From: Laspinema palackyanum D2b | GTDB lineage: Bacteria; Cyanobacteriota; Cyanobacteriia; Cyanobacteriales; Laspinemataceae | Strand: one strand, 5' to 3' | Length of the DNA stretch: 64,000 nucleotides | NCBI RefSeq assembly: GCF_025370835.1 | Contig: NZ_JAMXFE010000013.1 | Program-made: the position numbers and the translations under genes | Shown here: in pieces, positions 28,952 through 52,141 of the stretch | Layout: the number at the start of each line of letters is the position of its first letter | Numbering within the stretch: the stretch's first letter is position 1 | Notes under the pieces: model-generated | Told to the model about the DNA's origin: nothing | The model's database searches: none | What the model saw: the letters and a program-made list of their open reading frames with translations, nothing else

Positions 28952-30847
28952 CTACGCCGATACCTGCCGCTGTGCTTGTTGTTCTTGGATGCGATCGAGG
29001 GTGCCGGTGGGGATGGAGGCGATGAGCGATCGCGTGTAGTCTTTTTGAGGGTTGCTGTAGATGCTTTCTGCGGGACCGACTTCTTCCACTTTGCCTTTAT
29101 TCATCACCAGAATGCGATCGCTCATAAACTTAACCACACTCAAATCATGGGAGATAAAAATATAGGTAAGTTTAAACTCCTCCTGTAATTCTTTTAACAA
29201 ATTCAGCACCTGCGCTTGCACCGATACATCTAAGGCAGAAACCGATTCATCGCAAATAATAAACTTAGGATTAAGCGCTAATGCTCTAGCAATACAAATC
29301 CGTTGTCGTTGACCTCCGGAAAACTCGTGGGGATAGCGATTCATCAATTCCGCATTTAATCCCACTCGTTCTAATAAATAGGCCGATCGCTCTCGTCGGT
29401 GGCGGGAACTCTCACCCACTCCATGTATTTTCAACGGTTCCATGACTAAGTTCCCAATGCTCATCCGGGGATTCAGGGAACTAAACGGATTTTGGAAAAC
29501 AATTTGCATTTCGCGGCGTACTTGTCGCAACGCTCTCCCTTCCAGTTTGCCTACATCTTGCCCTTCAAATAAGACATTTCCGGCAGTGGGTTCGATTAAT
29601 CTTAATAAGGTGCGGGCGAGGGTGGTTTTACCACAACCAGATTCCCCCACTAATCCCAAGGTTTCTCCTGGATACACTTCAAAAGAAACCCCATTCACCG
29701 CCATAATATAACGTTGGGTTTCTCCAAAGATACCGCGCACGGGAAAAGCGACTTCTAGGTTCCGAACTTCTAGCAAGGGGGACTTTAGCTGTAAGTTGCT
29801 TAACCGGCGTTGTATGTCTGCCTCACTGACTTCTTGGATGTTTGTTACTCCGTCGGATTCGTGAGTTTCGCTGTGTTTTTCCCGAATCTCGCGATCGCCA
29901 CTGGCATTGGTGACCACTTCCATAAAATCCGAGACTGTCGGCAGATAAATTAACCGGCGATCGGGACGGGGACGACAAGCGAGTAAACCTTTTGTATAAG
30001 GATGTTGGGGATTAGAAAAAATTTGGAGAACCGAACCCTGTTCGACAATTTTACCTTGGTACATCACCGCCACTTGGTCGGCGATTTCCGCAATCACCCC
30101 GAGGTCATGGGTAATAAACATCATGGACATTCCTCGGCGATCGCGCAAATCCCGCATTAATTCCAGAATTCTCGCCTGGACTGTCACATCCAAGGCCGTT
30201 GTCGGTTCATCGGCAATCAGCAACGTAGGGTCGCAGGAAATCGCCATAGCAATCATCACCCGCTGAATTTGACCCCCAGACAATTCATGGGGAAAGCGCT
30301 TCAAAATCGCCAGCTTTTGCTGATTCACCTGTTGCATGATTTCCCGTTCCGTTGCCGTTTCAGGCAACTGCACCTGTTCGCGCAACTCTGCATCACTCGG
30401 CAACAACTTCACCTCTTGTAAAGCAGCGATCGCCCGTCTTCTCGCCTCAGATTCTGATACCTGATGATGCAACAAAATCGCTTCAGTCAGTTGAAATCCA
30501 ATATTATAAACCGGGTTCAGAGAACTCATGGGTTCCTGAAAAATCATCGAAATTTTGCCCCCGCGATACTGCTGTTTCGCTTGGGGAGGCAGCGCCAATA
30601 AATCGATAGGTTCTTCTTCCTGAGTTCCGCGAAACCAAATTTCGCCCCCGGAAATCCGTCCCGGAGTCGGAACTAATCCCATCACCGCCAGGGAGGTGAC
30701 GGATTTCCCGGAACCCGACTCCCCCACGATCCCCACGGTTTGACCGCGTTGGACCTTAAAGGAAATTTGGTCAACCGCTTTAACGGGTCTTCCTTCGGTG
30801 AAAAATTGGACTTGCAGGTTGCGAACATCAAGAACGGTGTCTGTCAT
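28952..30847 (-). CDS. ABC transporter ATP-binding protein with two fused ATPase domains (oligopeptide/nickel Dpp/Opp D-F type)
   Basis: Two Walker A motifs (GESGSGKS; GESGCGKT), two LSGGQ signatures, two Walker B motifs, and C-terminal oligopeptide-ABC motifs. Confidence 0.9.
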
Positions 30848-31123
30848 GGAGAATTAGGGGGAAAAGGTAGGAAGATTGTAACAGGGTCAGTTCGATCGAT
30901 ATTGTAGTGTAAGCGGTATTGTTTAGAAGAAAAACTGCATCAGTATGCTCTCAATAGTAACTCACTCCGGAGCGGGAGCGATCGCCGGGTACGCTCTCAA
31001 TCGGGGACCCGGACACTAAGAACCCAGTCAAAGCCTGGAAAAGCCCCCCACCGTCACAGACTAAGGTTGCTGAACCCTTATTTCCCTCGGAGAGAATATT
31101 AGTATCCAATAAAAATCGTCAAC

Positions 31124-31345
31124 TCATAAAATCACTTCTTGACCCGAGGATGAATCCCTCACCCCGTCAAAAACATCGGGTTCGATCCATATTCCTTCAG
31201 CATTCAGTTCTTGGCGAAAGGACTTAAGACGTTGCCAAAATTCTCCCCCGGTCTCAATGGATAAGCTAATTTCTTGGCCATCGGGAATATCTATGTTATC
31301 AAAAAGTTCGATATGTCGGCCTTTTTTAATTCCTTTAATTTGCAT
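31124..31345 (-). CDS. Small protein (73 aa) with an N-terminal DUF104-like (antitoxin-like) region; orphan
   Basis: MQIKGIKKGRHIELFDNIDIPDGQEISLSIE resembles the DUF104 consensus (IYENGV..L....LPEG.KV.VTIE). No toxin partner adjacent. Confidence 0.4.
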   Translation of the reverse strand: MQIKGIKKGRHIELFDNIDIPDGQEISLSIETGGEFWQRLKSFRQELNAEGIWIEPDVFDGVRDSSSGQEVIL

Positions 31346-31469
31346 AAAATATTATGTTTCCTCTCTCATGAATAACTCTCAAAAATTAGAGCATTCCCAC
31401 ATAAAAAATTCATCAATCAGACAGAATGGGAAGAGTTTAGCGTCAATCTAGCCCGGTCCCGCAGGGGTG

Positions 31470-31500
31470 AAGGGTTGAAAAGCAGAAAGAGGCGATCGAT
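31470..31500 (-). terminator. Perfect palindrome AGAAAGAGGCGATCGATCGCCTCTTTCT downstream of the Met-rich protein gene
   Basis: 28-bp perfect inverted repeat read directly. Confidence 0.5.
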
Positions 31501-31597
31501 CGCCTCTTTCTCCACAAAATCTTTTAATACTCTGACTCACCCAGGGGATGAACTTGATGGATTTACCTTTTCCCTGGAGGGCGATCGCTTCTGTTCG

Positions 31598-31948
31598 TTA
31601 CTGCGCGGTAGGGTTTTGATGGTTTTGTTGGTTCTGATGGGTGGAACCCTCTTCTCCACCGCCCATCATGCCACCATTCATTTTGGCTTTGCAGCGTTCT
31701 TTCATTTCTTGCATTCCCTGCATTTGCCCCCTCATTTCCTCCATCTGCGCTCTCATTTCCTCATGCTGTTGCTGCATCTGTTCAAGAGTCATGGGGGGAA
31801 CCTGTCCTTCGGGTCTTTGTGCGAATAAAGGACTTGCACTGACGACTAAGAGGGTCACACCTGCGGCGGCGGTTCCTAGGACGGTTTTGGTGAATAAACT
31901 TGCGTTCATTTCGACTTCTCCAGGGCTGAAATTTTTCCTGTTAAACAT
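31598..31948 (-). CDS. Secreted Met/Gln-rich small protein (possible periplasmic metal-binding or stress protein)
   Basis: Signal peptide (LFTKTVLGTAAAGVTLLVVSASPLFA) followed by MxxxM-rich low-complexity sequence (MQQQHEEMRAQMEEMRGQMQGMQEM). Confidence 0.5.
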   Translation of the reverse strand: MFNRKNFSPGEVEMNASLFTKTVLGTAAAGVTLLVVSASPLFAQRPEGQVPPMTLEQMQQQHEEMRAQMEEMRGQMQGMQEMKERCKAKMNGGMMGGGEEGSTHQNQQNHQNPTAQ

Positions 31949-32049
31949 AGGATAAACTCTCCCCCTAAGCGGAGAGTCTAGTGGTTTTTACAATTCTTTA
32001 CAAAGCGGTGGAAATAATGCGGGGGCGATCGCTTCCCGGGTCCTGTTAG

Positions 32050-32105
32050 GTCCCTAAGCAGAACTCGACACCGTAACAGAGAAATCGGGTTTCTGGGTCA
32101 CGGTG
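32050..32105 (-). terminator. 13-bp stem hairpin (AACTCGACACCGT...ACGGTGTCGAGTT) 3' of cysK
   Basis: Direct reading. No strong T-run, so confidence is modest. Confidence 0.4.
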
Positions 32106-32137
32106 TCGAGTTCAGGGGAAAAATCAATGCACAGAGA

Positions 32138-33100
32138 TTAACTAATTGCCGCTGCCTCTTGGAGTTCAGGGTCTTGGAACAGGGGAGTGCTCAGGTAACG
32201 TTCCCCAAAACTCGGCTGAATCATCACAATCAGTTTCCCTTGATTTTCTGGGCGTTGCGCGAGGCGGATAGCGGCGCATAAGGCAGCACCAGCAGAGATA
32301 CCCGAGAGGAGACCTTCTTCCCGGGCCAAACGGCGACTGTAGGCCATTGATTCATCATCGCTGACCACAATCACTTCATCAATGAGTTCTACCTTCAACA
32401 CATCGGGAATGAATCCCGCCCCGATGCCTTGAATTTTGTGGGGACCGGCAGATCCGCCAGAGAGGATGGGACTGGTGGTGGGTTCAACAGCGATCGCCTT
32501 AAAACCGGGTTTGCGCGCCTTGAGCACTTCTGCCACTCCTGTTAAAGTCCCACCCGTTCCGACCCCAGCCACCACAAAGTCTACCTCACCATCGGTATCT
32601 TCCCAAATTTCTTCGGCTGTCGTCTCCCGATGAACCTGTGGGTTAGCGGGGTTGCTAAACTGTTGCAACATATAGGCATTCGGGGTACTGTCCACAATTT
32701 CTTGGGCGCGAGAGATGGCCCCTTTCATGCCCATATTGCCCGGAGTCAATTCGACCTTAGCCCCATAAGCGCCTAACATCAATCGGCGCTCTTGACTCAT
32801 GGTTTCTGGCATGGTTAGAATCAGTTGATAGCCCTTAGCGGCAGCAGCCATTGCTAGAGCAATTCCGGTATTTCCCGAGGTCGGTTCAACTAAGATGGTT
32901 TTTCCGGGGATAATTCTCCCCTCCTCTTCCGCCACATTAATCATATTGACGCCGATGCGATCCTTAACGGAAGAGGCGGGGTTCATTCCTTCTAATTTCA
33001 CCACAATTCTAGCCACACAACCTTCGGCTTGAGGAATGCGGTTTAAATCGACTAAAGGAGTGCGACCGACGAGTTCGGTAATATTTCGAGCTATTTTCAT
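32138..33100 (-). CDS. cysK: Cysteine synthase A (O-acetylserine sulfhydrylase)
   Basis: PLP-lysine motif SSVKDRIG, the TSGNTG loop and GxGTGGT. Confidence 0.95.
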
Positions 33101-33722
33101 GAGTTCACTGAATGGATAGGTTTAGTGGGATGATTGACTGTTGAGAACGGTGCAGCGCCAGGTTGGACTGACCAATTGCCGTAGGCTTCCCTAGGGGAAT
33201 TTTGGGGGTTAACCCGACTCCAGTAAACGATTGAGAATGGGGGATGGTCAAGGTTGATGTAATAAAACTTTACTCATCAAACGTCCCAGTATGTGAGAGG
33301 CGATCGCGAAGTTTTGATAACTGAATCAATCCAAACCCTGTTTCTCTAAGATACATTGGAGTCGTCGTGAACCTGTAAAAATGGCAAGACATTATTATAG
33401 CGCGATTTGGAATGATTTTAGTTTGGGATTAGGGCGATAGTCACCCATTTTGATAGCTTTTGCCTAGAATTAAAGGAGCAATTACGGCCATTTCCATTAT
33501 TGCTTGATTGACTCCTTCATATTGAGGCGGGTATCCCCTATTTCACCGATTTGTGCCAAAGCAATTATGAGGATTCCCCCATAATTCTGTGATGAATCGC
33601 TGGGTTATCATATCAGGTTAGAATGGAAAGAGTAGAAATTCCTAAGAGGGAAGGGAAGCAAAGCTATCCCTTCAAATTACAATAAATTGATGTACCCAAT
33701 GCAATTTTAAGGAACAAGACCG

Positions 33723-34739
33723 ATGATCAATAGCTTTGAACTCAATAACTTTGGACCCATTCAGCAGTTTGTCTGTCCCAGGGCCAGCCATATAAATGTC
33801 ATTATTGGAGGGAATGGCACAGGAAAAACTATTTTCCTGAAAGCACTGTACACCGCCATGCGAACGATAGAAGACTATAAACGAGGTAACGAACCCCGTA
33901 GTGCTTCGGAAATTTTATCGGAAAAACTATATTGGACTTTTGAGGTAGACAAAATAGGCGATTTAGTCCGAAAAGGAGCCGAGGCCCCCCTGTCTTTCCA
34001 GCTAAGTTTTAATGGAAATTCGTTTTTTTATGAATTTGGCAAAGATACGACTAGAACCATTAATCACATAGAAAATCAGGTTTCACCTCGCGAAAGTAAC
34101 TCAATTTTTTTGCCCGCCAAAGAAATTCTTTCTCTTCAATCTTTGATTTTACAGTCCCGCGAGCAAAGTAAAACTTTTGGCTTTGATGATACCTATTTGG
34201 ATTTAGCCCGGGCGCTGCGACAAGCTAAAACAAGGGGGGGAGATTATGCTGAATTTGCTCAATCCAGAAAAAGCTTAAAAGATATTACGAGCGGCACTCT
34301 GGAATACGATAATCTATCAGAAAATTGGCAGTTTAAAAAAGGAAATCAAAAGTTTTCAATTGGCGTAACATCCGAAGGAATTAAAAAATTTTCTATTATC
34401 GATACTTTACTGGGAAATCGATATTTGGACCCTAATTCTATTATTTTCATTGACGGAATAGAAGGTGCTTTACATCCCACAGCAATTTCAAAATTTCTTG
34501 ATATCGTTGTAATGTTAGCAGAGAAAGGAATCCAATTTTTTATGGCAACTCACTCTTATTTCGTGATTAAAAAGCTGTTTTTAATTGCTCAACAAAAAGA
34601 TGACCTTTCCATTTCCATCTTTTCTGCAGCTGAAGACAATTGGAATACGGCTAATGTAAAAGAGGGTTTACCCGATAATCCGATTATTGATGAATCAATT
34701 CGGTTGTATCAAGAAGAGGTAAGGCTGGCACTGGAATGA
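33723..34739 (+). CDS. AAA_21/ABC-type ATPase (SMC-head-like), 338 aa, with a variant Walker B
   Basis: Walker A GGNGTGKT; signature-like SEGIKKFSIIDTLL; Walker B region IIFIDGIEGALHP (Gly where the catalytic Glu normally sits, with a Glu two residues later); H-loop ATHS. Locally low GC. Confidence 0.8.
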   Translation: MINSFELNNFGPIQQFVCPRASHINVIIGGNGTGKTIFLKALYTAMRTIEDYKRGNEPRSASEILSEKLYWTFEVDKIGDLVRKGAEAPLSFQLSFNGNSFFYEFGKDTTRTINHIENQVSPRESNSIFLPAKEILSLQSLILQSREQSKTFGFDDTYLDLARALRQAKTRGGDYAEFAQSRKSLKDITSGTLEYDNLSENWQFKKGNQKFSIGVTSEGIKKFSIIDTLLGNRYLDPNSIIFIDGIEGALHPTAISKFLDIVVMLAEKGIQFFMATHSYFVIKKLFLIAQQKDDLSISIFSAAEDNWNTANVKEGLPDNPIIDESIRLYQEEVRLALE

Positions 34740-35254
34740 CTTTAGACCCTATTATTGAGTCAGGCATGACTTTTGGACCTTATCCCAAAGGACATTGCTT
34801 TTATATTGAGAAGAGTAAAACCTATCAAGCCATTCAATCCGATGTAAAAATGGCAGAGTTTCTGCTGCTGCGTGATTCAAACCGATCGCTAGTCTGGATT
34901 GTTGAGGCAAAATCTAGCTCTCCACGTCCTGAAACTAAACCCAACTTTGATGAATTTATCCAAGAGATTTGTGACAAACTCACCAATGCTCTGAATTTAT
35001 GTATTGCAACTTGCCTCAAACGCCATACTTCTGCCTATGAAGAATTACCTGCTCCCTTTCAGTCTCTGGCGTTAGAAAAAATTGATTTTCGATTGATATT
35101 GGTTATCAAAGGACATCAGGATTCATGGCTTCCCCCACTCCAGGATGCACTCAAAAAAGCGCTCAAGCCTACCGTCAAAATTTGGAAATTATCTCCCACT
35201 TCTGTTGTTGTCATGAATGACCAGATGGCGCGGGAGACCGGATTAATTCAGTAA
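34736..35254 (+). CDS. Small protein (172 aa), predicted PD-(D/E)xK nuclease fold; translationally coupled to the upstream ATPase (ATGA overlap)
   Basis: LLLRD ... VWIVEAKSS matches the D-x(10)-ExK spacing after beta strands. No TOPRIM DxD or HNH motif seen. Confidence 0.55.
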   Translation: MTLDPIIESGMTFGPYPKGHCFYIEKSKTYQAIQSDVKMAEFLLLRDSNRSLVWIVEAKSSSPRPETKPNFDEFIQEICDKLTNALNLCIATCLKRHTSAYEELPAPFQSLALEKIDFRLILVIKGHQDSWLPPLQDALKKALKPTVKIWKLSPTSVVVMNDQMARETGLIQ

Positions 35255-35397
35255 AACGACTCCGGTGTAAAACCTCGGGTTAAAGTAGAGGTAATTTGAT
35301 GAATTACCCCTACTCAACTCCTGAACGAGTTATCCTCTGTTCAGGCAGCGTTACACCCTAGGACTGGGTATCAAACCCGGTCTAAATATTCCAAAAC

Positions 35398-36603
35398 TTA
35401 GGCTTCATCTAAGGCGGCAACTCCGGGGAGTTCCTTGCCTTCGAGTAATTCTAAGCTGGCACCGCCTCCGGTGGAAATGTGGCTCATTTTATCGGCTAAT
35501 CCAACTTTTTCCACGGCTGCTACGGAGTCGCCACCGCCGATGATGGTGGTGGTACCTTTGGGGGTGAGTTCGGATAACGTATGGGCGATCGCCTCGGTTC
35601 CTTTGGCGAATTTGTCGATTTCAAACACACCCATCGGTCCATTCCAAATCACCGTCTTGCAATCCGCAAGAGCGTCTTGGAAGGTTTTCACAGAATCGGG
35701 ACCAATATCCAATCCCATCCAACCATCAGGGATATTTTCCACGCTGACAATTTGCGTATTGGCATCAGCACCAAATTTGTCCGCAATTACCACATCCGTC
35801 GGCAATAACATCGCTACGCCGCGTTCTTTTGCCTTCGCTTCCAAGGATTTGGCTAACTCTAGTTTGTCATCTTCCACCAAGGAATTTCCCACGCTGATTC
35901 CCCGCGCTTTTAAGAAGGTGAAAATCATCCCACCACCGAGGAGTAGTTTGTCACACTTCTCTAACAAGGTTTCAATGACGCCAATTTTGCTAGAAACCTT
36001 AGAACCACCAATAATCGCTGCCAAAGGACGCTGAGGTTCTTCGATCGCCCCTTTCAGGTATTGCAGTTCTTTCTCCATCAAAGACCCGGCAACGGAAGGA
36101 CTCAGGTAATGAGTAACCCCTTCGGTAGAAGCATGGGCGCGGTGGGCCGTTCCAAAGGCATCATTCACATACAAATCGGCCACAGAAGCCAGCTTTTTGG
36201 CAAATTCTGGGTCGTTTTTCTCTTCTTCAGCATAGAACCGGACATTCTCCAGTAAGGCAACTTGGCCGTTTTCCATGCCTTGGACCTTGCTTGCCACCTC
36301 ATCGCCAATGCAGTCATCGCATTTGATAACTTCTTGACCCAATAATTCCGAGAGGCGCTTGGCAACCGGGGTGAGGCGCATTTTTTCATTCACCTGACCC
36401 TTGGGACGTCCAAAGTGGCTGGACAGAATCACCTTGGCCCCTTTACCCGTTAAATCTTGAATCGTCGGCAATGCGGCCCGAATCCGGGTATCATCGGTGA
36501 TGTTACCGGCATCATCTAGGGGTACATTGAAGTCAGCACGGACTAACACCCGTTTACCAGATAGGTCTGAGGCTGACAAATTTGCTACAGTTTTCTTGGG
36601 CAT
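35398..36603 (-). CDS. pgk: Phosphoglycerate kinase
   Basis: RADFNVP...[11 protein letters not shown] and overall PGK similarity. Confidence 0.95.
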
Positions 36604-36799
36604 GAAGATCCCTCCTAATTGCGTTTTTTGGTCTGTTTTTCGAGAAAATCGGCTTATAGCGCGTGGGATTTAACTCCTGCGCCGAGGCAGTACCCCAAAA
36701 CTGACGCCAGGAATGGCGCCCTTGATAGATCAATCTCTATCGATCTGGAAGGTTTGCCGTAAACATTTTATCGTTGAGTGCGTCCTAAACACGGCTGCT

Positions 36800-37213
36800 A
36801 TGTTTAAAACTGTTCTTTTTCCAATTGATGAAAGTCGCGAGTCCCGAGAAGCGGCGGATACGGTGGCCCAAATGGTCAAAACCTTCAACTCGCGCTTAAT
36901 TTTGCTGTCTGTGAATGAGGTTGAGGTGGAGGGAGAGGAACCCCCACCTCCAGAACGGGTGATGACCCCGGAGGCGATCGCAGAATTACTCAAAAATGCT
37001 CAGTCCATGTTTTCTAAGCTAGGTATCGAAGCGGAAACCATTGAACGGGAAGGAAAACCCGCCTTTATCATTTGCGATGTAGCGGACGAAATTAATGCGG
37101 ATCTCGTGATTATGGGCTGTCGCGGGATTGGGTTAACAGAAGAGGGTCTCGCCGATAGCGTCACCAACCGAGTGATTAATTTGGCCCCTTGTCCCGTGTT
37201 GATTGTACCGTAG
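36800..37213 (+). CDS. Universal stress protein (UspA family). Start placed at MFKTVLFPID; the ORF track's upstream ATG at 36713 is less likely.
   Basis: FPIDES...VIMGCRGIGL..G..SVT..V...PCPVLIV is the Usp signature. Confidence 0.85.
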   Translation: MFKTVLFPIDESRESREAADTVAQMVKTFNSRLILLSVNEVEVEGEEPPPPERVMTPEAIAELLKNAQSMFSKLGIEAETIEREGKPAFIICDVADEINADLVIMGCRGIGLTEEGLADSVTNRVINLAPCPVLIVP

Positions 37214-37680
37214 GGGAGATGGGGGGAGATGGGGGAGATGGGGGAGATGGGGAAGCGGTAGTAACAACTTCAGTCATTATCCCTCTTAGTTCGTAGTAAC
37301 GACTTCAGTCGTTCTCCCTCTTAGTTCGTAGTAACGACTTCAGTCGTTCTACCTCTTAGTTCGTAGTAACGACTTCAGTCGTTCTTACGGTACCTTAAAA
37401 TGTAGCATTTTAAGCTTTATGGTTTGAGCCCTAGACGTGGTTAATCCGTAAACGACTGAAGTCGTTACTACGAACAGGGGATCCGGAAACGACTGAAGTC
37501 GTTACTACGAACCGGGGATCCGGAAACGACTGAAGTCGTTACTACGAACCGGGGATCCGGAAACGACTGAAGTCGTCACTACGAACCGGGGATCCGGAAA
37601 CGACTGAAGTCGTTACTACGAACCGGGGAGAATGGTCTCTCCCCCAATCCTCCCCATCCTCCCCATCCCTCCATCCACAT
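37214..37680. repeat. ~470-bp super-palindrome: GGGGAGAT satellite, 4 reverse hairpin units, a ~60-bp centre, 5 forward 37-bp units (AAACGACTGAAGTCGTTACTACGAACCGGGGATCCGG), then CCCCATCC satellite
   Basis: Direct reading. Mirror-image organisation around 37390-37450. Lies between usp and ylqF. Confidence 0.85.
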
Positions 37681-37697
37681 TTATCAAGTATTTAACA

Positions 37698-38561
37698 ATG
37701 ACAACTCCTGACATTCAATGGTATCCCGGCCATATTTCTAAGGCGGAAAAACAACTGGCGGAACAATTGAAGCTGGTGGATGTGGTGTTGGAGGTCCGGG
37801 ATGCGCGGATTCCTTTGTCTACCCATCATCCCCAGGTGCCGCAGTGGGTGGGGAGTAAAAGCCGAGTTTTGATTATTAATCGGGTGGATACGATTTTGCC
37901 ACCCCTGCGCGATCGCTGGCATCTGTGGTTTCAACGTCAGGGAGAAACGCCTTATTTTACCAATGCTCAAGATGGGACGGGGATCAAGGCGATATCTAAG
38001 GCGGCGAAGGAGGCGGGGATTGCTCTAAATCAACGTCGTCTCGATCGCGGGATGCGCCCTCGCGCTGTTCGGGCGGTGGTGATTGGGTTTCCTAATGTGG
38101 GCAAATCGGCGTTGATTAATCGCTTAGTCGGGCGTCGTGTGGTGGAAAGCGCCCGACGTGCGGGGGTGACTAAGCAACTGCGTTGGGTGCGGATTTCTGA
38201 TGAACTGGAACTGTTGGATGCCCCTGGGGTGATTCCCAGTAAGTTAGAGGACCAAGATGCTGCTTTAAAATTAGCCATTTGTGATGATATTGGCGAGGCA
38301 GCTTATGATAATCAACGGGTGGCATCGGCATTTGTGGATATGGTGAAAGAGATTGAGGCAATGGGGACCGCATGGATGCCACCGGAGGCGTTGCGATCGC
38401 GCTATAAACTTGACCCTCTCCCCATGACGGGGGAAGATTATCTCCATAATTTTGCTGAATCCCGATATGAAGGCGATGTGGAACGGGCGGCAAGGCAAAT
38501 TCTCAATGATTTTCGCAAGGGATTGTTAGGTCAAATTCCCCTAGAATTGCCTCCGGAATAA
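37698..38561 (+). CDS. rbgA: Ribosome biogenesis GTPase A (YlqF/RbgA), circularly permuted GTPase
   Basis: WYPGHISKA..., the permuted motif order, and the G1 motif GFPNVGKSALIN. Confidence 0.9.
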   Translation: MTTPDIQWYPGHISKAEKQLAEQLKLVDVVLEVRDARIPLSTHHPQVPQWVGSKSRVLIINRVDTILPPLRDRWHLWFQRQGETPYFTNAQDGTGIKAISKAAKEAGIALNQRRLDRGMRPRAVRAVVIGFPNVGKSALINRLVGRRVVESARRAGVTKQLRWVRISDELELLDAPGVIPSKLEDQDAALKLAICDDIGEAAYDNQRVASAFVDMVKEIEAMGTAWMPPEALRSRYKLDPLPMTGEDYLHNFAESRYEGDVERAARQILNDFRKGLLGQIPLELPPE

Positions 38562-47943: not shown

Positions 47944-49305
47944 CTAATGACTCAAATTCATAAGATAGTGTTGCATCACCGGGTCTAGGGTTAAAGCCGT
48001 AGATTTGTAGAGTAAATTTCGTTTTTTCAGGGATTGAATCGCCTTGAAAAAATCAGAATCTGATAAAAGTTCCGGGGGTTTATGGCTAATCTCCACAGGT
48101 TGTTCTTGGTTAGCTAACCACCGAATCAGGACTTGCTCCGATTCACAGAGGCGTTGATAATGTTGTTTGAGAATCGGTTCTATATTGCCTAAATAGAGGG
48201 GAGGATAGGAGAGGAATGTTTCCACACTCCCATCAAATAGCTCCAGGATAGCTGTAGCGATGATATTTAACCATAAAGGGTTGCCATTATAAAGTTGAAT
48301 CAGCCGTGACCATTGAGGTTGGTCCTGGAGTTTCCTAGCGGTGAGGAGTTGGCTGGCTGATTTTCCTAAACCGGCAAGTTGGAGAGTTTTGCAGGAGCAT
48401 TCTTCCGCTTCTAGGGTAGCAACTTCTAGGGGCTGTTCCCAACTGAGGAGCAACAAACAACTGCCATGAGAAAATCGCCCCATTTCTTCGAGGAAACGAC
48501 CATAGTTTTGGTATCCGGGGCAGTAATTTCCGACTAACTCCCCAGGGGTCAAAGTGTCTTGAAAATCGTCAAGGATGATTAAGCAGCGGTGGGTTCTGAG
48601 ATAGTCTAAAAAAGAGTTACGAGAGTTTAAATAGGTGATGAGTGATTGATTTTGGATGGGGGAAGTTGGGGCGATAAATTCGATGATATGGCTTTGCAGA
48701 GCGTTGAGGGTGGGGAATTTGCGATGACTGCGCCACAGGATGCGATCGAAGTTGTCTTTGATCTCTTCCACCAGTTGTCTAGCCAGGGCAGTTTTACCGA
48801 TACCGGAGAGTCCAGTGAGGGTGATAATCCGGCTTTGTTCGGTCAGAATCCATTGTTTGAGGGTCGCCAGTTCGTCCGTGCGGTTGTAGAAGCGGAGATT
48901 ATCAGGGGCTTGGCTGAGGTCGTGGCGAGGTTCTGGTTGGGTTTTGGGGGTGGAGGGCGATCGGTTTTTCTTTTTTTTGGAATTATTGTATGGTTCGCTA
49001 CAGATATTTATGTTATTTCCAATATGCACCACATCATTGTAATAAGAAAAGACCCCATTTTCGATAAGGGAGCGAACATTCTTTTTTTTCACATCCTCTC
49101 CCAACAGATCCGACAGGAGTTTCCATAATTCCGATGCTGACTTCCGGACATGATCGTTGCTGCAATGGTATTCCTCAGCGATCTCCTTATATTCCTTGTG
49201 TTCCCAGACCCCCTCCAAAATAGCCCGTTGCAGCGAGTCCAGATGCTTCCCAGTTTTCGCAAAAATCAACTCATCCGTCCACTGCAAGGCTTCTTGAATC
49301 TCCAT
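47944..49305 (-). CDS. STAND-class NB-ARC NTPase (453 aa) with an N-terminal LuxR/GerE-like HTH domain; no C-terminal repeat sensor
   Basis: HTH LDSLQRAILEGVWEHKEYKEIAEEYHCSNDHVRKSASELWKLL; P-loop GLSGIGKT; Walker B LIILDD; sensor-1-like GSCLLLLS; GxP-like GNPLWLNIIA. Confidence 0.8.
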   Translation of the reverse strand: MEIQEALQWTDELIFAKTGKHLDSLQRAILEGVWEHKEYKEIAEEYHCSNDHVRKSASELWKLLSDLLGEDVKKKNVRSLIENGVFSYYNDVVHIGNNINICSEPYNNSKKKKNRSPSTPKTQPEPRHDLSQAPDNLRFYNRTDELATLKQWILTEQSRIITLTGLSGIGKTALARQLVEEIKDNFDRILWRSHRKFPTLNALQSHIIEFIAPTSPIQNQSLITYLNSRNSFLDYLRTHRCLIILDDFQDTLTPGELVGNYCPGYQNYGRFLEEMGRFSHGSCLLLLSWEQPLEVATLEAEECSCKTLQLAGLGKSASQLLTARKLQDQPQWSRLIQLYNGNPLWLNIIATAILELFDGSVETFLSYPPLYLGNIEPILKQHYQRLCESEQVLIRWLANQEQPVEISHKPPELLSDSDFFKAIQSLKKRNLLYKSTALTLDPVMQHYLMNLSH

Positions 49306-49500
49306 AGCTCCTCAATTGGCTCCTAATTTTGGGTACTTTCACCCCCTATTATCCCCCTTTTGCTAACAAAATCCCACATTTCCCTCTTTTTGGATTTGTA
49401 AACCCCTCCGAGATCCAGCCCTAAATCCCACTTTCATGGGGTTGTAATATTTCCTTAAAATTGAGATAATTTAGAAAAATAATTAGTGGAGTTATTTATT

Positions 49501-49668
49501 ATGAGTCCAGAAAAGCCCCCTGATCGCGCTGGTAAAAAAGAACGGCAGATGACTAAGTGTACCAATCCCAGATGTAATGGTGGTAGAGTAACCTTTACTG
49601 ATAAGTCGGGTAAAACAGAAACTTCCCAATGCCCGACTTGCAAAGGAACAGGACGAGTACCTGGTTAA
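49501..49668 (+). CDS. Small zinc-ribbon protein (55 aa) with two CxxC pairs (CTNPRC...CPTCKGTG)
   Basis: DnaJ-type CxxCxGxG motif; GGAG 9 nt upstream of the ATG. Confidence 0.45.
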   Translation: MSPEKPPDRAGKKERQMTKCTNPRCNGGRVTFTDKSGKTETSQCPTCKGTGRVPG

Positions 49669-49675
49669 AACCTTA

Positions 49676-49874
49676 CGGTTCGCTCATTTTTAATTGAGTT
49701 TTTGAGATAGCCTAGGAGTATATGAGGGTTACAGACTTCATAGCTTGCTCTTGACAAAAGTCAGTTTATATGTATTTCATGCCGGAGTTACTGATTTATT
49801 CTCAGTATTCAAGTCAAAACGCTATATATAGTGTTTTACAATTCTCCGAACCCCTAAAAAAATGAGCGAACCGC
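49676..49874. repeat. ~200-bp AT-rich element bounded by perfect 15-bp inverted repeats GGTTCGCTCATTTTT / AAAAATGAGCGAACC (MITE-like)
   Basis: Termini read directly as exact reverse complements. The element abuts the truncation point of the gene fragment at 49923. Confidence 0.5.
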
Positions 49875-49922
49875 AAGTAAAACGTAGCTTAAATTCTTGA
49901 AAAATAAGCAGTAGTGGTATTC

Positions 49923-50054
49923 CTAGGCGATATCTTTATATTCTTTACCTTCCCATACACCCTCCAAAATAGCGGGTTGCAGGGAGTCCAGACGCTTCGC
50001 ACTTCTGGCAAAAATCAATTCATCAGTCCACTGCAAGGCTTCTTGAATTTCCAT
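49923..50054 (-). pseudogene. 5' fragment (about 44 codons) of a second copy of the STAND-HTH gene, with a duplicated promoter/leader
   Basis: MEIQEALQWTDELIFARSAKRLDSLQPAILEGVWEGKEYKDIA parallels the N-terminus of the 47944..49305 product. Upstream leader 50060-50200 resembles 49320-49450. Homology stops at KDIA followed by a stop. Confidence 0.6.
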
Positions 50055-50299
50055 AGCTGCTAAAGGGGATTGTAGTTTTGTATGGTTTTGTGTAGTTTGC
50101 CCCCCCTTATCCCACATTTTCCCCCTTTTTGCCACAAAATCCCTCCTTATCCCACTTTCTTACTTTTAATTCTTTCATAAATAACCCCCGAAATCTCACT
50201 TTTATGGTGTTGACTTACTGAAAATAAATTGAGACAATTATCGGCATCAATAAAAATTCTCCTAAATTGGTTAGTATAGTAGTCTTTGAGGAATAATTT

Positions 50300-50470
50300 A
50301 TGAGATACGAGTACAGTACCAAAGTCGTTGACTTAGAAAAAGTTAATGTTGAATGCAATTCAATGGGTCAACAAGGCTGGGAGCTTGCGACAGCTTTACC
50401 ATATTCTAGATTAAATTGTTGCCAGCAATCTGTTCCGACGGTTGTATTAATTTTTAAGAAATCTGCATGA
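50300..50470 (+). CDS. DUF4177-like small protein (56 aa); stop overlaps the start of the downstream membrane protein
   Basis: MRYEYSTKVV...GQQGWELATAL matches DUF4177 (M.YEYK.V...L...G.EGWEL). GAGGA RBS. Not in the ORF track because it is under 60 aa. Confidence 0.5.
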   Translation: MRYEYSTKVVDLEKVNVECNSMGQQGWELATALPYSRLNCCQQSVPTVVLIFKKSA

Positions 50471-51138
50471 GTTGCTTTAATCACCAGCGCGATCAGATAA
50501 ATTATGGTCATCTAGAAACCCCCGCTTTTGTTAAATTTATCAACAACTTGGGCAGAATTCCTTTACTTGCTCATCATCCAGCCTGTACATATTACCACAA
50601 TCATATTATTTGGATTGGGAATTTACCCCTATGTTTAGGTTGTTTGATGATGAGTTGTGGAATAATCACGGGTTTTTTGCTGATTCCTCATTTAGGAGTT
50701 TTTAAAACTTTACCGTTTTTTGTATTACTTTCTCTAGGGGTTCTATTGTATCTTCCAGCGGTCCTTCAAATCTGGATCCAGAAAAAAATTTACAAAATTA
50801 TCGCTCGATTTTGCTTAGGTGTTTCGGTTGTGTTTCTTTGTTATGCAGGTTTGTGGTTAACGCCCAACTCAACTATAGGATGGATTTTAAAATTTGGATT
50901 TATCACTGTTTTCTATGGAGTTTGGTATCTGACTTTAAAAATGCGATCGCAATATTCAAAGTCTCCTTGCACAAGTTGCCCGGAAGGACGCTTTCCCCTT
51001 TGTTCCTATACAACTCATCGAATTCCTAAATTAGCACCACAATATTTCTCAGAATCTGATGGGAATAACCAAGAAGCGGATGAGTTTGTTACAGCATTAC
51101 AGTCCGTATATTCTCAACCCAAAAATGACACAATTTAA
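50467..51138 (+). CDS. Cys-rich integral membrane protein (about 4 TM helices; CLGCLMMSC and CTSCPEGRFPLC motifs)
   Basis: Hydrophobic segments and conserved-looking Cys clusters; low-GC context. Confidence 0.6.
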   Translation: MSCFNHQRDQINYGHLETPAFVKFINNLGRIPLLAHHPACTYYHNHIIWIGNLPLCLGCLMMSCGIITGFLLIPHLGVFKTLPFFVLLSLGVLLYLPAVLQIWIQKKIYKIIARFCLGVSVVFLCYAGLWLTPNSTIGWILKFGFITVFYGVWYLTLKMRSQYSKSPCTSCPEGRFPLCSYTTHRIPKLAPQYFSESDGNNQEADEFVTALQSVYSQPKNDTI

Positions 51139-51247
51139 AGATGGTTTTATCTGGTATGATGATTTTGTATAGATTAGCGAACTACCTCTAGCAACTGGAA
51201 TCTCTAGTCAGCCTAGTCAGTAGGGTTTCATACCCTCTCAACTCAAC

Positions 51248-51547
51248 CTACACAATCGTTTGCGTGTCTAATAACTCAGAGCATCGGATGATCAAGCGAT
51301 TCCCTGCAAGACGCTTTTCTCTTAAGATTTTGAGGTCTTCCTGAAACTCATCAATATCATAGTGGACGCAAATACCTCGCTCAGAAATCAGTTTTTGAAA
51401 CTGCATCCGATGCAGACCCAATAGCTCACTAGCTTTCCCTAAACTAATTTTATCTTGCTGAAACAACATCAGCACAATTTCCAACAATAGCTCATTTTCC
51501 GAAAGGCCACTCGCCTTTACTAAGTCATCGGCAATCACTAAACTCAT
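51248..51547 (-). CDS. UPF0175-family antitoxin-like protein (orphan)
   Basis: LLLEIVLMLFQQDKISLGKASELLGL...F..LL.ERGI is the UPF0175 consensus. Confidence 0.7.
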   Translation of the reverse strand: MSLVIADDLVKASGLSENELLLEIVLMLFQQDKISLGKASELLGLHRMQFQKLISERGICVHYDIDEFQEDLKILREKRLAGNRLIIRCSELLDTQTIV

Positions 51548-51727
51548 GGGGAACTCTCCTGGGCTGAAATCTCCTGCTTCAATCTTAGCTTAGCAGCCGG
51601 GAGAGCGATCTCGCCTGGTTGCAGATGCCATATTCCCTAGAATCAGAAACCGGGTTTCTCGGGTGGGTTTCTGCATCTTTGCTAAAACTTGACCAGAAAC
51701 CCGGTTTCTAAACACAGTTTTCTGCTC

Positions 51728-52141
51728 TTATCCTGGAATAACGTCAAAAGCATCTTTATCATAGAGTCGATAAACATAAAAATCACTATCTAAGGTAAAA
51801 ATCCGCTTAATCTTTTGACTTTCTGCCACAGCCACCAGAGAAGCATCGGCTAAATCCATAGGCAGATCTTGATATTTTTCCATCAAAACTTTCATGCGTT
51901 GACATTCGGCTTCATTAGCTGGATGAAGATACAAGGCTTTTCTATTGATGAACTCCCATAAGATGGCCTGTGCTGACCAACCTCGCAATTCTGATAAGAA
52001 GTACATCGCTTCAGTAAAACAAGGCCATGTTGTTAACATGGAACCTGTTAGAGTTTTGTAAGTTTGAACACATTTAACATGGGTATCTCCCTGGCCTTTA
52101 TCAATCAGAGCAATGAGAGGCCCAGTGTCCACTAAAATCAT
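51728..52141 (-). CDS. PIN-domain ribonuclease toxin (VapC-like)
   Basis: MILVDTGPLIAL...the acidic residue pattern including TLDSDF near the C-terminus. Confidence 0.8.
   Translation of the reverse strand: MILVDTGPLIALIDKGQGDTHVKCVQTYKTLTGSMLTTWPCFTEAMYFLSELRGWSAQAILWEFINRKALYLHPANEAECQRMKVLMEKYQDLPMDLADASLVAVAESQKIKRIFTLDSDFYVYRLYDKDAFDVIPG

Follow-up and report, generated by a model that had tools for sequence, protein, structure and literature searches.

A chromosomal HEC-02-type ATPase-nuclease pair with a substituted Walker B glutamate in Laspinema palackyanum

Which system is encoded by the two small, overlapping genes that separate cysK from pgk in the cyanobacterium Laspinema palackyanum D2b, and is it new? 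The genes lie in a low-GC islet within a stretch of 64,000 nucleotides of contig NZ_JAMXFE010000013.1 (assembly GCF_025370835.1), hereinafter the window. From the sequence alone, an original prediction had taken them for a two-gene defense module, possibly an undescribed variant, in which an ABC-type ATPase (gene 1) is coupled to a small PD-(D/E)xK-like protein (gene 2). We found that the islet is HEC-02 (Hma-embedded candidate 02), an already named and experimentally tested system, and that this copy is ordinary apart from the loss of the catalytic glutamate of its ATPase.

Assignment of the pair to HEC-02

HEC-02 was described by Payne, Hughes, Fineran and Jackson, with PADLOC-DB v2, as the combination of an ABC ATPase with a NERD-like PD-(D/E)xK protein, discovered inside Hma systems (bioRxiv 10.1101/2024.01.29.577857). 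The representative tested in that work, from Dickeya dianthicola NCPPB 3534 (WP_024108366.1 and WP_024108365.1), protected Escherichia coli from phage, as seen in reduced plaquing, and both genes were needed. The same authors found such cassettes to be widespread irrespective of Hma, so that embedding is not required for membership in HEC-02.

Both window proteins matched PADLOC hidden Markov models (HMMs) of HEC-02 from end to end. Gene 1 matched the HEC-02A model PDLC04214 with E=1.8e-153 and 508.8 bits (1-337 of 338), as well as PDLC04213 (1e-59), and gene 2 matched the HEC-02B model PDLC04221 with E=2.3e-73 and 243.7 bits (1-169 of 171), along with five additional HEC-02B models. The two genes are adjacent and co-directional, and the (D/E/Q)xK phosphodiesterase motif of the B protein is present as E57-A-K59. 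The matches of both proteins, the synteny and the ExK motif together place the window pair in HEC-02, which refutes the idea of an undescribed variant. The coupling of an ABC-type ATPase to a small protein of PD-(D/E)xK fold that the original prediction had proposed is supported by HMMs and folds alike. The discovery value is small, and a PADLOC run on this genome would already name the pair HEC-02; what the assignment does is to place a very widespread subfamily of HEC-02, with unusually strong cross-phylum conservation, in filamentous cyanobacteria, where defense systems have hardly been tested.

The reading frames and their 4-base overlap were found exactly where they had been predicted (Table 1), and the ATGA overlap indicates translational coupling of the two genes. 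In a syntenic relative, the flanking genes carry the annotations PALP and PGK. As had been noticed, the pair is poorer in GC than its surroundings: its GC content is 0.390, compared with 0.475 +/- 0.035 in equal-sized windows of the 64 kb (z = -2.45), and GC at third codon positions is 0.33 and 0.38 in genes 1 and 2 versus 0.50 and 0.52 in cysK and pgk. Only two low-GC islets of this kind exist in the window, the HEC-02-type pair being one of them. No mobile-element genes were found beside the pair.

Table 1. Features of the HEC-02-type locus and its surroundings, in window coordinates
Feature	Position	Strand	Remark
HEC-02A-type ABC ATPase (gene 1), 338 aa	33723..34739	+
Walker A / P-loop, G29-GNGTGK35-T36	33807..33830	+	G29, N31, G34, K35 and T36 invariant in the family alignment
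Signature-like loop, T216-S-E-G-I-K-K222	34368..34388	+	T216, E218, G219, K221 and K222 invariant
Walker B and start of D-loop, I240-IFIDGIE247	34440..34463	+	codon 245 is GGA (34455-34457); family, GAA
H-loop, H277-S278 (ATHS)	34551..34556	+	H277 and S278 invariant in the family alignment
ATGA stop/start overlap of genes 1 and 2	34736..34739	+	same 4-base overlap in 71 of 80 homologous loci
HEC-02B-type small PD-(D/E)xK-fold protein (gene 2), 172 aa, presumed nuclease effector	34736..35254	+
E41, start of strand 42-47	34856..34858	+	invariant in close homologs; E or D in the divergent family, including Dickeya
E57-A58-K59, (D/E)xK motif in strand 52-60	34904..34912	+	invariant in all alignments, including Dickeya HEC-02B
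Upstream region travelling with gene 1	33449..33722	+	kept in the window, HE19RPO and Laspinema D2d
-10-like TAGAAT	33619-33624	+	TATAAT in Laspinema D2d
Probable ribosome-binding site, AAGGA	33709-33713	+	read from the sequence
cysK	32138..33100	-
Conserved block upstream of cysK	33101-33448
pgk	35398..36603	-
Second low-GC islet	47944-52557		minimum GC 0.37 near 49.6 kb
STAND/NB-ARC-type NTPase, 453 aa	47944-49305	-
Truncated duplicate of the NTPase N-terminus	49923-50135	-
UPF0175 antitoxin-like gene	51248-51547	-
PIN-domain gene	51728-52141	-

Gene 2 has no family in Pfam or NCBIfam, and its nature was assessed from structure and conservation. A confident AlphaFold2 model built from 24 homologs (predicted local distance difference test score 81, predicted template modeling score 0.82) shows a restriction-endonuclease fold, with Upx, FokI, N.BspD6I, NucS, SduA, McrC and HamA as the best structural neighbors. 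The protein has the defining elements of the PD-(D/E)xK superfamily, that is, an alpha/beta core, an acidic residue at the start of a strand and a (D/E)xK motif in the next strand. Among close homologs, E8, E25, E41, E57, K59 and K81 are invariant or nearly so, and of the 120 closest cluster representatives, 118 retain EAK; in the divergent alignment that includes the Dickeya protein, E8, E57, K59 and K81 are invariant, and positions 25 and 41 hold E or D throughout. The predicted active site is, according to this conservation and the model, (E/D)41-x15-E57-x-K59, in which E41 is likely the first metal-binding acid, the counterpart of the D in PD; E41 at a strand start followed by E57xK59 in the next strand gives the canonical PD-(D/E)xK geometry. 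The D-x(10)-ExK pattern on which the original prediction had relied is upheld in its second half only: E57xK59 is invariant, but the actual spacing is D47-x9-E57, and D47 is rejected as the catalytic aspartate, being a non-conserved residue in a variable hairpin loop. The comparison yields a corrected predicted active site, (E/D)41...E57xK59, with invariant E8 and K81.

The pair is broadly distributed and conserved as a unit. For gene 2, database searches retrieved 1,055 homologs at E<=0.001, and for gene 1 there were 2,667 at E<=1e-10. When 1.84 billion representatives were searched with a profile of the small protein, 1,108 clusters formed at 50% identity came up, almost all consisting of free-standing proteins of about 170 aa. 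The closest relatives come from Oscillatoria sp. HE19RPO (96% identity in the ATPase), Laspinema sp. A4/D2d (88%) and Phormidium pseudopriestleyi, and relatives with 55-70% identity are found in Desulfobacterota, Beta- and Gammaproteobacteria, Verrucomicrobia, Lentisphaeria, Acidobacteria and Bacteroidetes. In all 80 loci retrieved with the small protein, which span cyanobacteria, Desulfobacterota, Proteobacteria, Verrucomicrobia, Acidobacteria and others, the ATPase gene lies directly upstream on the same strand.

The context of 78 loci was characterized by clustering the neighboring genes and then annotating them with HMMs. About 10 loci lie inside type I restriction-modification (R-M) operons, with HsdM and HsdS upstream and HsdR downstream of the pair, and about 9 lie inside bacteriophage exclusion (BREX) systems, between PglX and PglZ/BrxL; taken together, some 19 of the 78 homologous loci, or about a quarter, are found in one of these two types of systems. 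Such embedding lends a defense role independent support from genomic context (guilt by embedding), and, along with the HEC-02 matches, it bears out the anti-phage logic of the original prediction.

The altered Walker B motif of the ATPase and the evolution of the pair

Gene 1 matches the Pfam families AAA_21 (E=1.9e-20) and AAA_15 (E=2.8e-14), and its structure model is an ABC ATPase fold with PtuA, SMC, Rad50 and OLD as the nearest neighbors. The motifs by which it had been recognized, GGNGTGKT, SEGIKK (in full, TSEGIKK), IIFIDGIEGALHP and ATHS, are all present, and the protein displays the features of the ABC ATPase clade, namely Walker A, a signature-like loop, the Walker B aspartate, an H-loop and the ABC head fold. 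It contains no coiled-coil insertion and no additional domain, ending at residue 338. In the structure model, the signature-like loop, in which position 217 is alanine in most family members, lies at the N-terminus of helix 217-231, and its spacing to Walker B suggests that it is equivalent to LSGGQ. Variability within the family clusters in residues 11-20, 91-100, 171-200 and 291-310, clear of the nucleotide-binding motifs, a distribution that fits a variable sensing surface and makes these blocks candidates for that role.

The family consensus of the Walker B motif and D-loop is FIDEPESALHP, and hhhhDEPE is found in 76 of the 79 loci where the motif could be located. The window protein has D244-G245 in place of the canonical hhhhD-E, which is typical of the family and lies outside the PADLOC definition. 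Glutamate stands at position 245 in 74 of 74 other full-length family members; of the 120 closest cluster representatives, 118 have it, as does the Dickeya HEC-02A (WDEPES). Among the family loci compared, glycine occupies this position only in the window and in Oscillatoria sp. HE19RPO, the result of a single GAA to GGA transition, and Laspinema D2d shows an intermediate, DEIEG. Comparison of the homologs identifies E245G as a lineage-specific loss of the predicted catalytic glutamate of the ATPase, accompanied in the window by a radical substitution, P246I, and by S248G. The original prediction had correctly seen the glycine but was mistaken in viewing the nearby glutamate as displaced: E247 is the normal second glutamate of DEPE, invariant in the family alongside E245, and is rejected as a compensating residue. 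The missing glutamate leaves the family assignment, which is based on homology, unaffected; the function is perhaps affected.

The ratio of non-synonymous to synonymous divergence (dN/dS) ranges from 0.19 to 0.29 in gene 1 and from 0.23 to 0.52 in gene 2. In gene 1, the two carriers of E245G, the window and HE19RPO, differ by 13 synonymous and 14 non-synonymous substitutions, a synonymous excess with P=0.002. By these measures, selection on the pair is purifying, and gene 1 is not freely decaying. Gene 2 deviates from the family at none of 37 conserved positions.

Among the 120 closest cluster representatives, a metagenomic HEC-02A homolog, P0214 (65% identical), reads VFIDAPESALH, a second, independent loss of the catalytic glutamate. 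Together with E245G, this loss shows that rare hydrolysis-site variants recur in the HEC-02A family. We tentatively consider the possibility, which we regard as less than even, that the HEC-02A of Laspinema and Oscillatoria is a naturally hydrolysis-deficient ABC ATPase that is kept by selection together with an intact nuclease and that would signal by ATP binding or dimerization. If the pair still defends, switching in HEC-02 would need ATP binding or dimerization and not hydrolysis, and the window protein, in that case a natural 'EQ-like' mutant, would reveal how ABC-ATPase immune sensors of this class switch. Its loss of the Walker B glutamate could be used to ask whether ABC ATPases that act as immune sensors need ATP hydrolysis at all.

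The slot between cysK and pgk holds the pair in the window, HE19RPO, Laspinema D2d, O. acuminata PCC 6304 and P. pseudopriestleyi, indicating an old, stably inherited insertion rather than a recent mobile arrival. The two genes have not always shared a history within this slot. In the comparison of the window with PCC 6304, synonymous divergence (dS) reaches 0.73 in gene 1, with 64-84% nucleotide identity over 33401-34600, whereas gene 2 and the flanking genes show dS of 0.15-0.28 and 90-97% identity. This mosaic divergence suggests that the gene for the putative sensor, the ATPase, was replaced by recombination while the nuclease gene was kept, and the swap of the ATPase allele fits a division of labor between a fast-evolving sensor and a constant effector. 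Between the window and HE19RPO, dS is 0.06 for the pair and 0.32 and 0.26 for cysK and pgk, respectively, and the low value for the pair suggests a recent exchange of the islet between strains by homologous recombination.

Proposed mechanism and alternative explanations

The islet is probably a chromosomal, stand-alone copy of HEC-02 that combines a sensor ATPase with a PD-(D/E)xK nuclease effector and acts against phages. By analogy with characterized systems, we infer the following mode of action in this cyanobacterium. Gene 1, an ABC ATPase of the OLD/PtuA/SMC-head type, would serve as the infection sensor and regulator, and gene 2, made in fixed proportion to it via the ATGA overlap, would be a minimal PD-(D/E)xK nuclease effector with E41 and E57-x-K59 in the active site and the invariant E8, E25 and K81 in support. 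The ATPase would hold the nuclease inactive, as in PARIS, Septu and Gabija, until a phage cue sensed by the variable insert regions shifts its nucleotide state or conformation and thereby licenses the nuclease. The licensed nuclease would cut nucleic acid, most probably DNA, and this would halt phage replication, possibly at a cost to the cell. The E245G ATPase would probably still bind ATP and hydrolyze it poorly, in which case either ATP binding by itself works the switch or the function of this copy has changed.

Several observations weigh against an active HEC-02 nuclease system at this locus. The glutamate found in 74 of 74 other full-length ATPases is a glycine adjoining a second radical change, P246I, and of 130 highly conserved positions the window ATPase deviates at 7, the family median being 1; jointly, these substitutions mean that this HEC-02 copy could be impaired. 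A Foldseek search of the PDB with the gene 2 model gave no significant match (best E=0.018, template modeling score 0.27), the weak matches again being PD-(D/E)xK nucleases, and a search of PDB sequences with the gene 2 family profile returned only a chance match to a ribosomal protein and no solved relative. The Pfam NERD family (PF08378) was not reached at E<=1 by the window protein or by 34 divergent family members; the published 'NERD-like' label rests on structural overlay (bioRxiv 10.1101/2024.01.29.577857), and in view of the missing sequence match it is a structural label only. No other defense genes lie within 10 kb of the pair, the neighbors being housekeeping genes. Finally, the window and Dickeya ATPases are only 23% identical (E=4e-25), and the small proteins are barely alignable (hhalign probability 47%, E=2e-4). 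The Dickeya proteins do cross-match the sub-models to which the window proteins belong, at 4.4e-60 for the ATPase and 8.9e-06 for the nuclease, and on sequence comparison the window pair is a distinct subfamily, distant from the Dickeya representative and inside the published HEC-02 definition.

The deviations in the ATPase are what might be expected if the pair were an inactivated or drifting remnant of HEC-02, in which a dead ATPase (E245G, P246I) is kept to neutralize a potentially toxic nuclease. The substitutions are stepwise within the near-invariant DEPES stretch (DEPEA to DEIEG to DGIEG), the glycine that ends this series, in the window and HE19RPO, stands where nearly all relatives have glutamate, and the count of deviations at conserved positions far exceeds the median. 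We nevertheless consider this unlikely: the open reading frames (ORFs) of both genes are intact in both carriers of E245G, the synonymous excess between these carriers points to constraint on the ATPase, the nuclease shows no deviations, and Walker A, the H-loop and the second glutamate of DEPE are intact. Selection alone cannot exclude lost defense, because an antitoxin-like ATPase also predicts continued selection. A different doubt concerns the substrate. The best structural neighbors of gene 2 cut DNA, HEC-02B has been grouped with NERD nucleases (bioRxiv 10.1101/2024.01.29.577857), and gene 2 has no significant sequence match to RNase families, all of which makes it distinctly unlikely that the effector is an RNase or tRNase, rather than a DNase, that causes abortive infection in the manner of PARIS. 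Defense systems with ABC ATPases can use RNA-targeting effectors; in PARIS, AriA releases AriB, which cleaves host tRNA (PMC12839542). Furthermore, PD-(D/E)xK folds include RNA cutters, such as the cap-snatching endonucleases of arenaviruses, which were among the weak Foldseek matches, and one family member weakly matches CdiA_C_tRNase (E=0.026, not significant).

Two further explanations dispense with a role in phage defense altogether. A selfish toxin-antitoxin or addiction module, with the nuclease as the toxin and the ATPase as the antitoxin, is very improbable given that a homologous pair lowered phage plaquing and needed both genes to do so, that homologs are repeatedly embedded in R-M and BREX operons, that no mobile-element genes flank the pair, and that its position is stable in five diverged genomes, which is unexpected of a mobile addiction module. 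This explanation would account for the layout of two small, translationally coupled genes within a low-GC islet and for a distribution that is both patchy and horizontally spread, and Pfam describes AAA_21 as 'putative AbiEii toxin, Type IV TA system'. The structural neighbors of the ATPase also include Smc and Rad50 heads as well as RecF and RecN, the pair sits among housekeeping genes and is stably inherited in its clade, and its cross-phylum conservation, at 55-70% identity, is unusually high, as it could be for a housekeeping pair in DNA repair or chromosome maintenance, with an SMC/Rad50/RecF-like ATPase and a nuclease comparable to SbcCD or Mre11-Rad50. Such a role is exceedingly improbable, however, for a protein of merely 338 aa without a coiled-coil insertion whose nearest relatives by HMM and fold are the defense ATPases HEC-02, AriA, PtuA, OLD and AbiL; the patchy taxonomy, the atypical composition, the R-M and BREX contexts of homologs and the phage-defense phenotype of one homolog all argue in the same direction.

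Surroundings of the pair and comparison with known systems

The gap between cysK and gene 1, described in the original prediction as about 600 bp and AT-rich, is real (622 bp) but only mildly AT-rich (GC 0.42) and heterogeneous. Only its gene 1-proximal part co-varies with gene 1 and, in O. acuminata PCC 6304, it is replaced along with most of that gene. This part is probably the site of the operon promoter, judging by the -10-like hexamer that it contains; a consensus promoter scan upstream of gene 1 found no site on the + strand, with site counts at chance expectation. The replaced upstream segment of PCC 6304 contains an extra 75-aa ORF (L003, 9717-9944).

The remainder of the gap, about 350 bp (348 bp) directly upstream of cysK, which starts at 33100, is a conserved cysK-side block. 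It is near-invariant in four genomes, those of the window, HE19RPO, Laspinema D2d and PCC 6304, and P. pseudopriestleyi has a version with 89% identity. Synonymous sites in cysK and pgk have diverged more (dS 0.19-0.44) than this block. On the - strand, a TATAAT near 33395 would imply a cysK leader of about 290 nucleotides. Rfam searches were negative both for 30500-37800 (E<=1) and for 33060-33480 (E<=10), and RNAalifold analysis of 4-5 copies of the block found 0-1 compensatory pairs, so that no structure can be claimed. The 41 metagenome loci retrieved for the block by a two-anchor pattern scan were rejected as chance matches, none being alike by blastn. One possibility is that the block is a cysK leader or a regulatory RNA specific to this clade.

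Other insertions were noticed nearby. P. pseudopriestleyi, alone among these genomes, has an additional 161-aa ORF between the pair and pgk (L006, 4323-4808), indicating that the cysK/pgk slot takes further insertions. About 9 kb downstream of the HEC-02 pair, PCC 6304 encodes a GmrSD_N (DUF262) protein whose gene overlaps that of an AAA_15/AAA_21/DUF3696 ATPase (L003, 19830-21017), another ABC-ATPase defense-like pair that is absent at the matching position in Laspinema-type genomes. The second low-GC islet of the window, which comprises the NTPase gene and its truncated duplicate followed by the UPF0175 antitoxin-like and PIN-domain genes (Table 1), may be another defense or toxin-antitoxin cluster.

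Two labels in the databases deserve attention. In PADLOC-DB, the A and B labels of PDLC04145 and PDLC04146, the original pair of HEC-02 models, are swapped relative to the other sub-models: PDLC04146, labeled HEC-02B, is an ATPase model (the best match of the Dickeya ATPase, and matched by window gene 1 at 1e-33), and PDLC04145, labeled HEC-02A, is a small-nuclease model. In RefSeq, the HEC-02B nuclease WP_024108365.1 is called 'cysteinyl-tRNA synthetase', an evident mis-annotation that could propagate.

Among the systems with a comparable ATPase, Septu (PtuA/PtuB) was rejected as the identity of the pair because the HNH partner is absent, gene 2 having no HNH match and a PD-(D/E)xK fold; the PtuA proteins of Septu and retrons are, moreover, larger (450-550 aa, with larger inserts), and gene 1 matches the PADLOC PtuA model only partially (E about 1e-13). 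PARIS, OLD and Gabija require a TOPRIM nuclease, in a partner protein or fused to the ATPase, and neither window protein matches TOPRIM or DUF4435, in agreement with the earlier view that the effector is neither HNH nor obviously TOPRIM; the PARIS effector AriB is a TOPRIM protein in contrast to the PD-(D/E)xK protein here, and the HEC-02 models outscore AriA by far. Lamassu couples an ABC/SMC-type ATPase (LmuB) to a PD-(D/E)xK nuclease (the Cap4-type LmuA), and the window pair differs from it in lacking a coiled-coil SMC arm and LmuC. Hachiman HamA, Shedu SduA and Upx, the last described in PMC13099982, are structural neighbors of gene 2 and likewise PD-(D/E)xK executioners. Unlike in these systems and Lamassu, there is no helicase partner and there are no extra sensor domains in the window pair, gene 2 being a bare catalytic domain of about 170 aa.

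Compared with HEC-02 itself, the window pair differs in its best-matching models (PDLC04214/04221, versus PDLC04146/04145 for Dickeya), in standing alone between cysK and pgk, outside Hma or any other multi-gene defense system, and in the glycine that replaces the Walker B glutamate kept in Dickeya. The likeness lies in the shared gene order, in which the gene for an ABC ATPase (about 340 aa) precedes and overlaps that for a PD-(D/E)xK protein (about 170 aa), in the ExK motif and the E or D at position 41 that are common to the window and Dickeya B proteins, and in the occurrence of homologs of the window pair inside other defense systems, the very setting in which HEC-02 was discovered.

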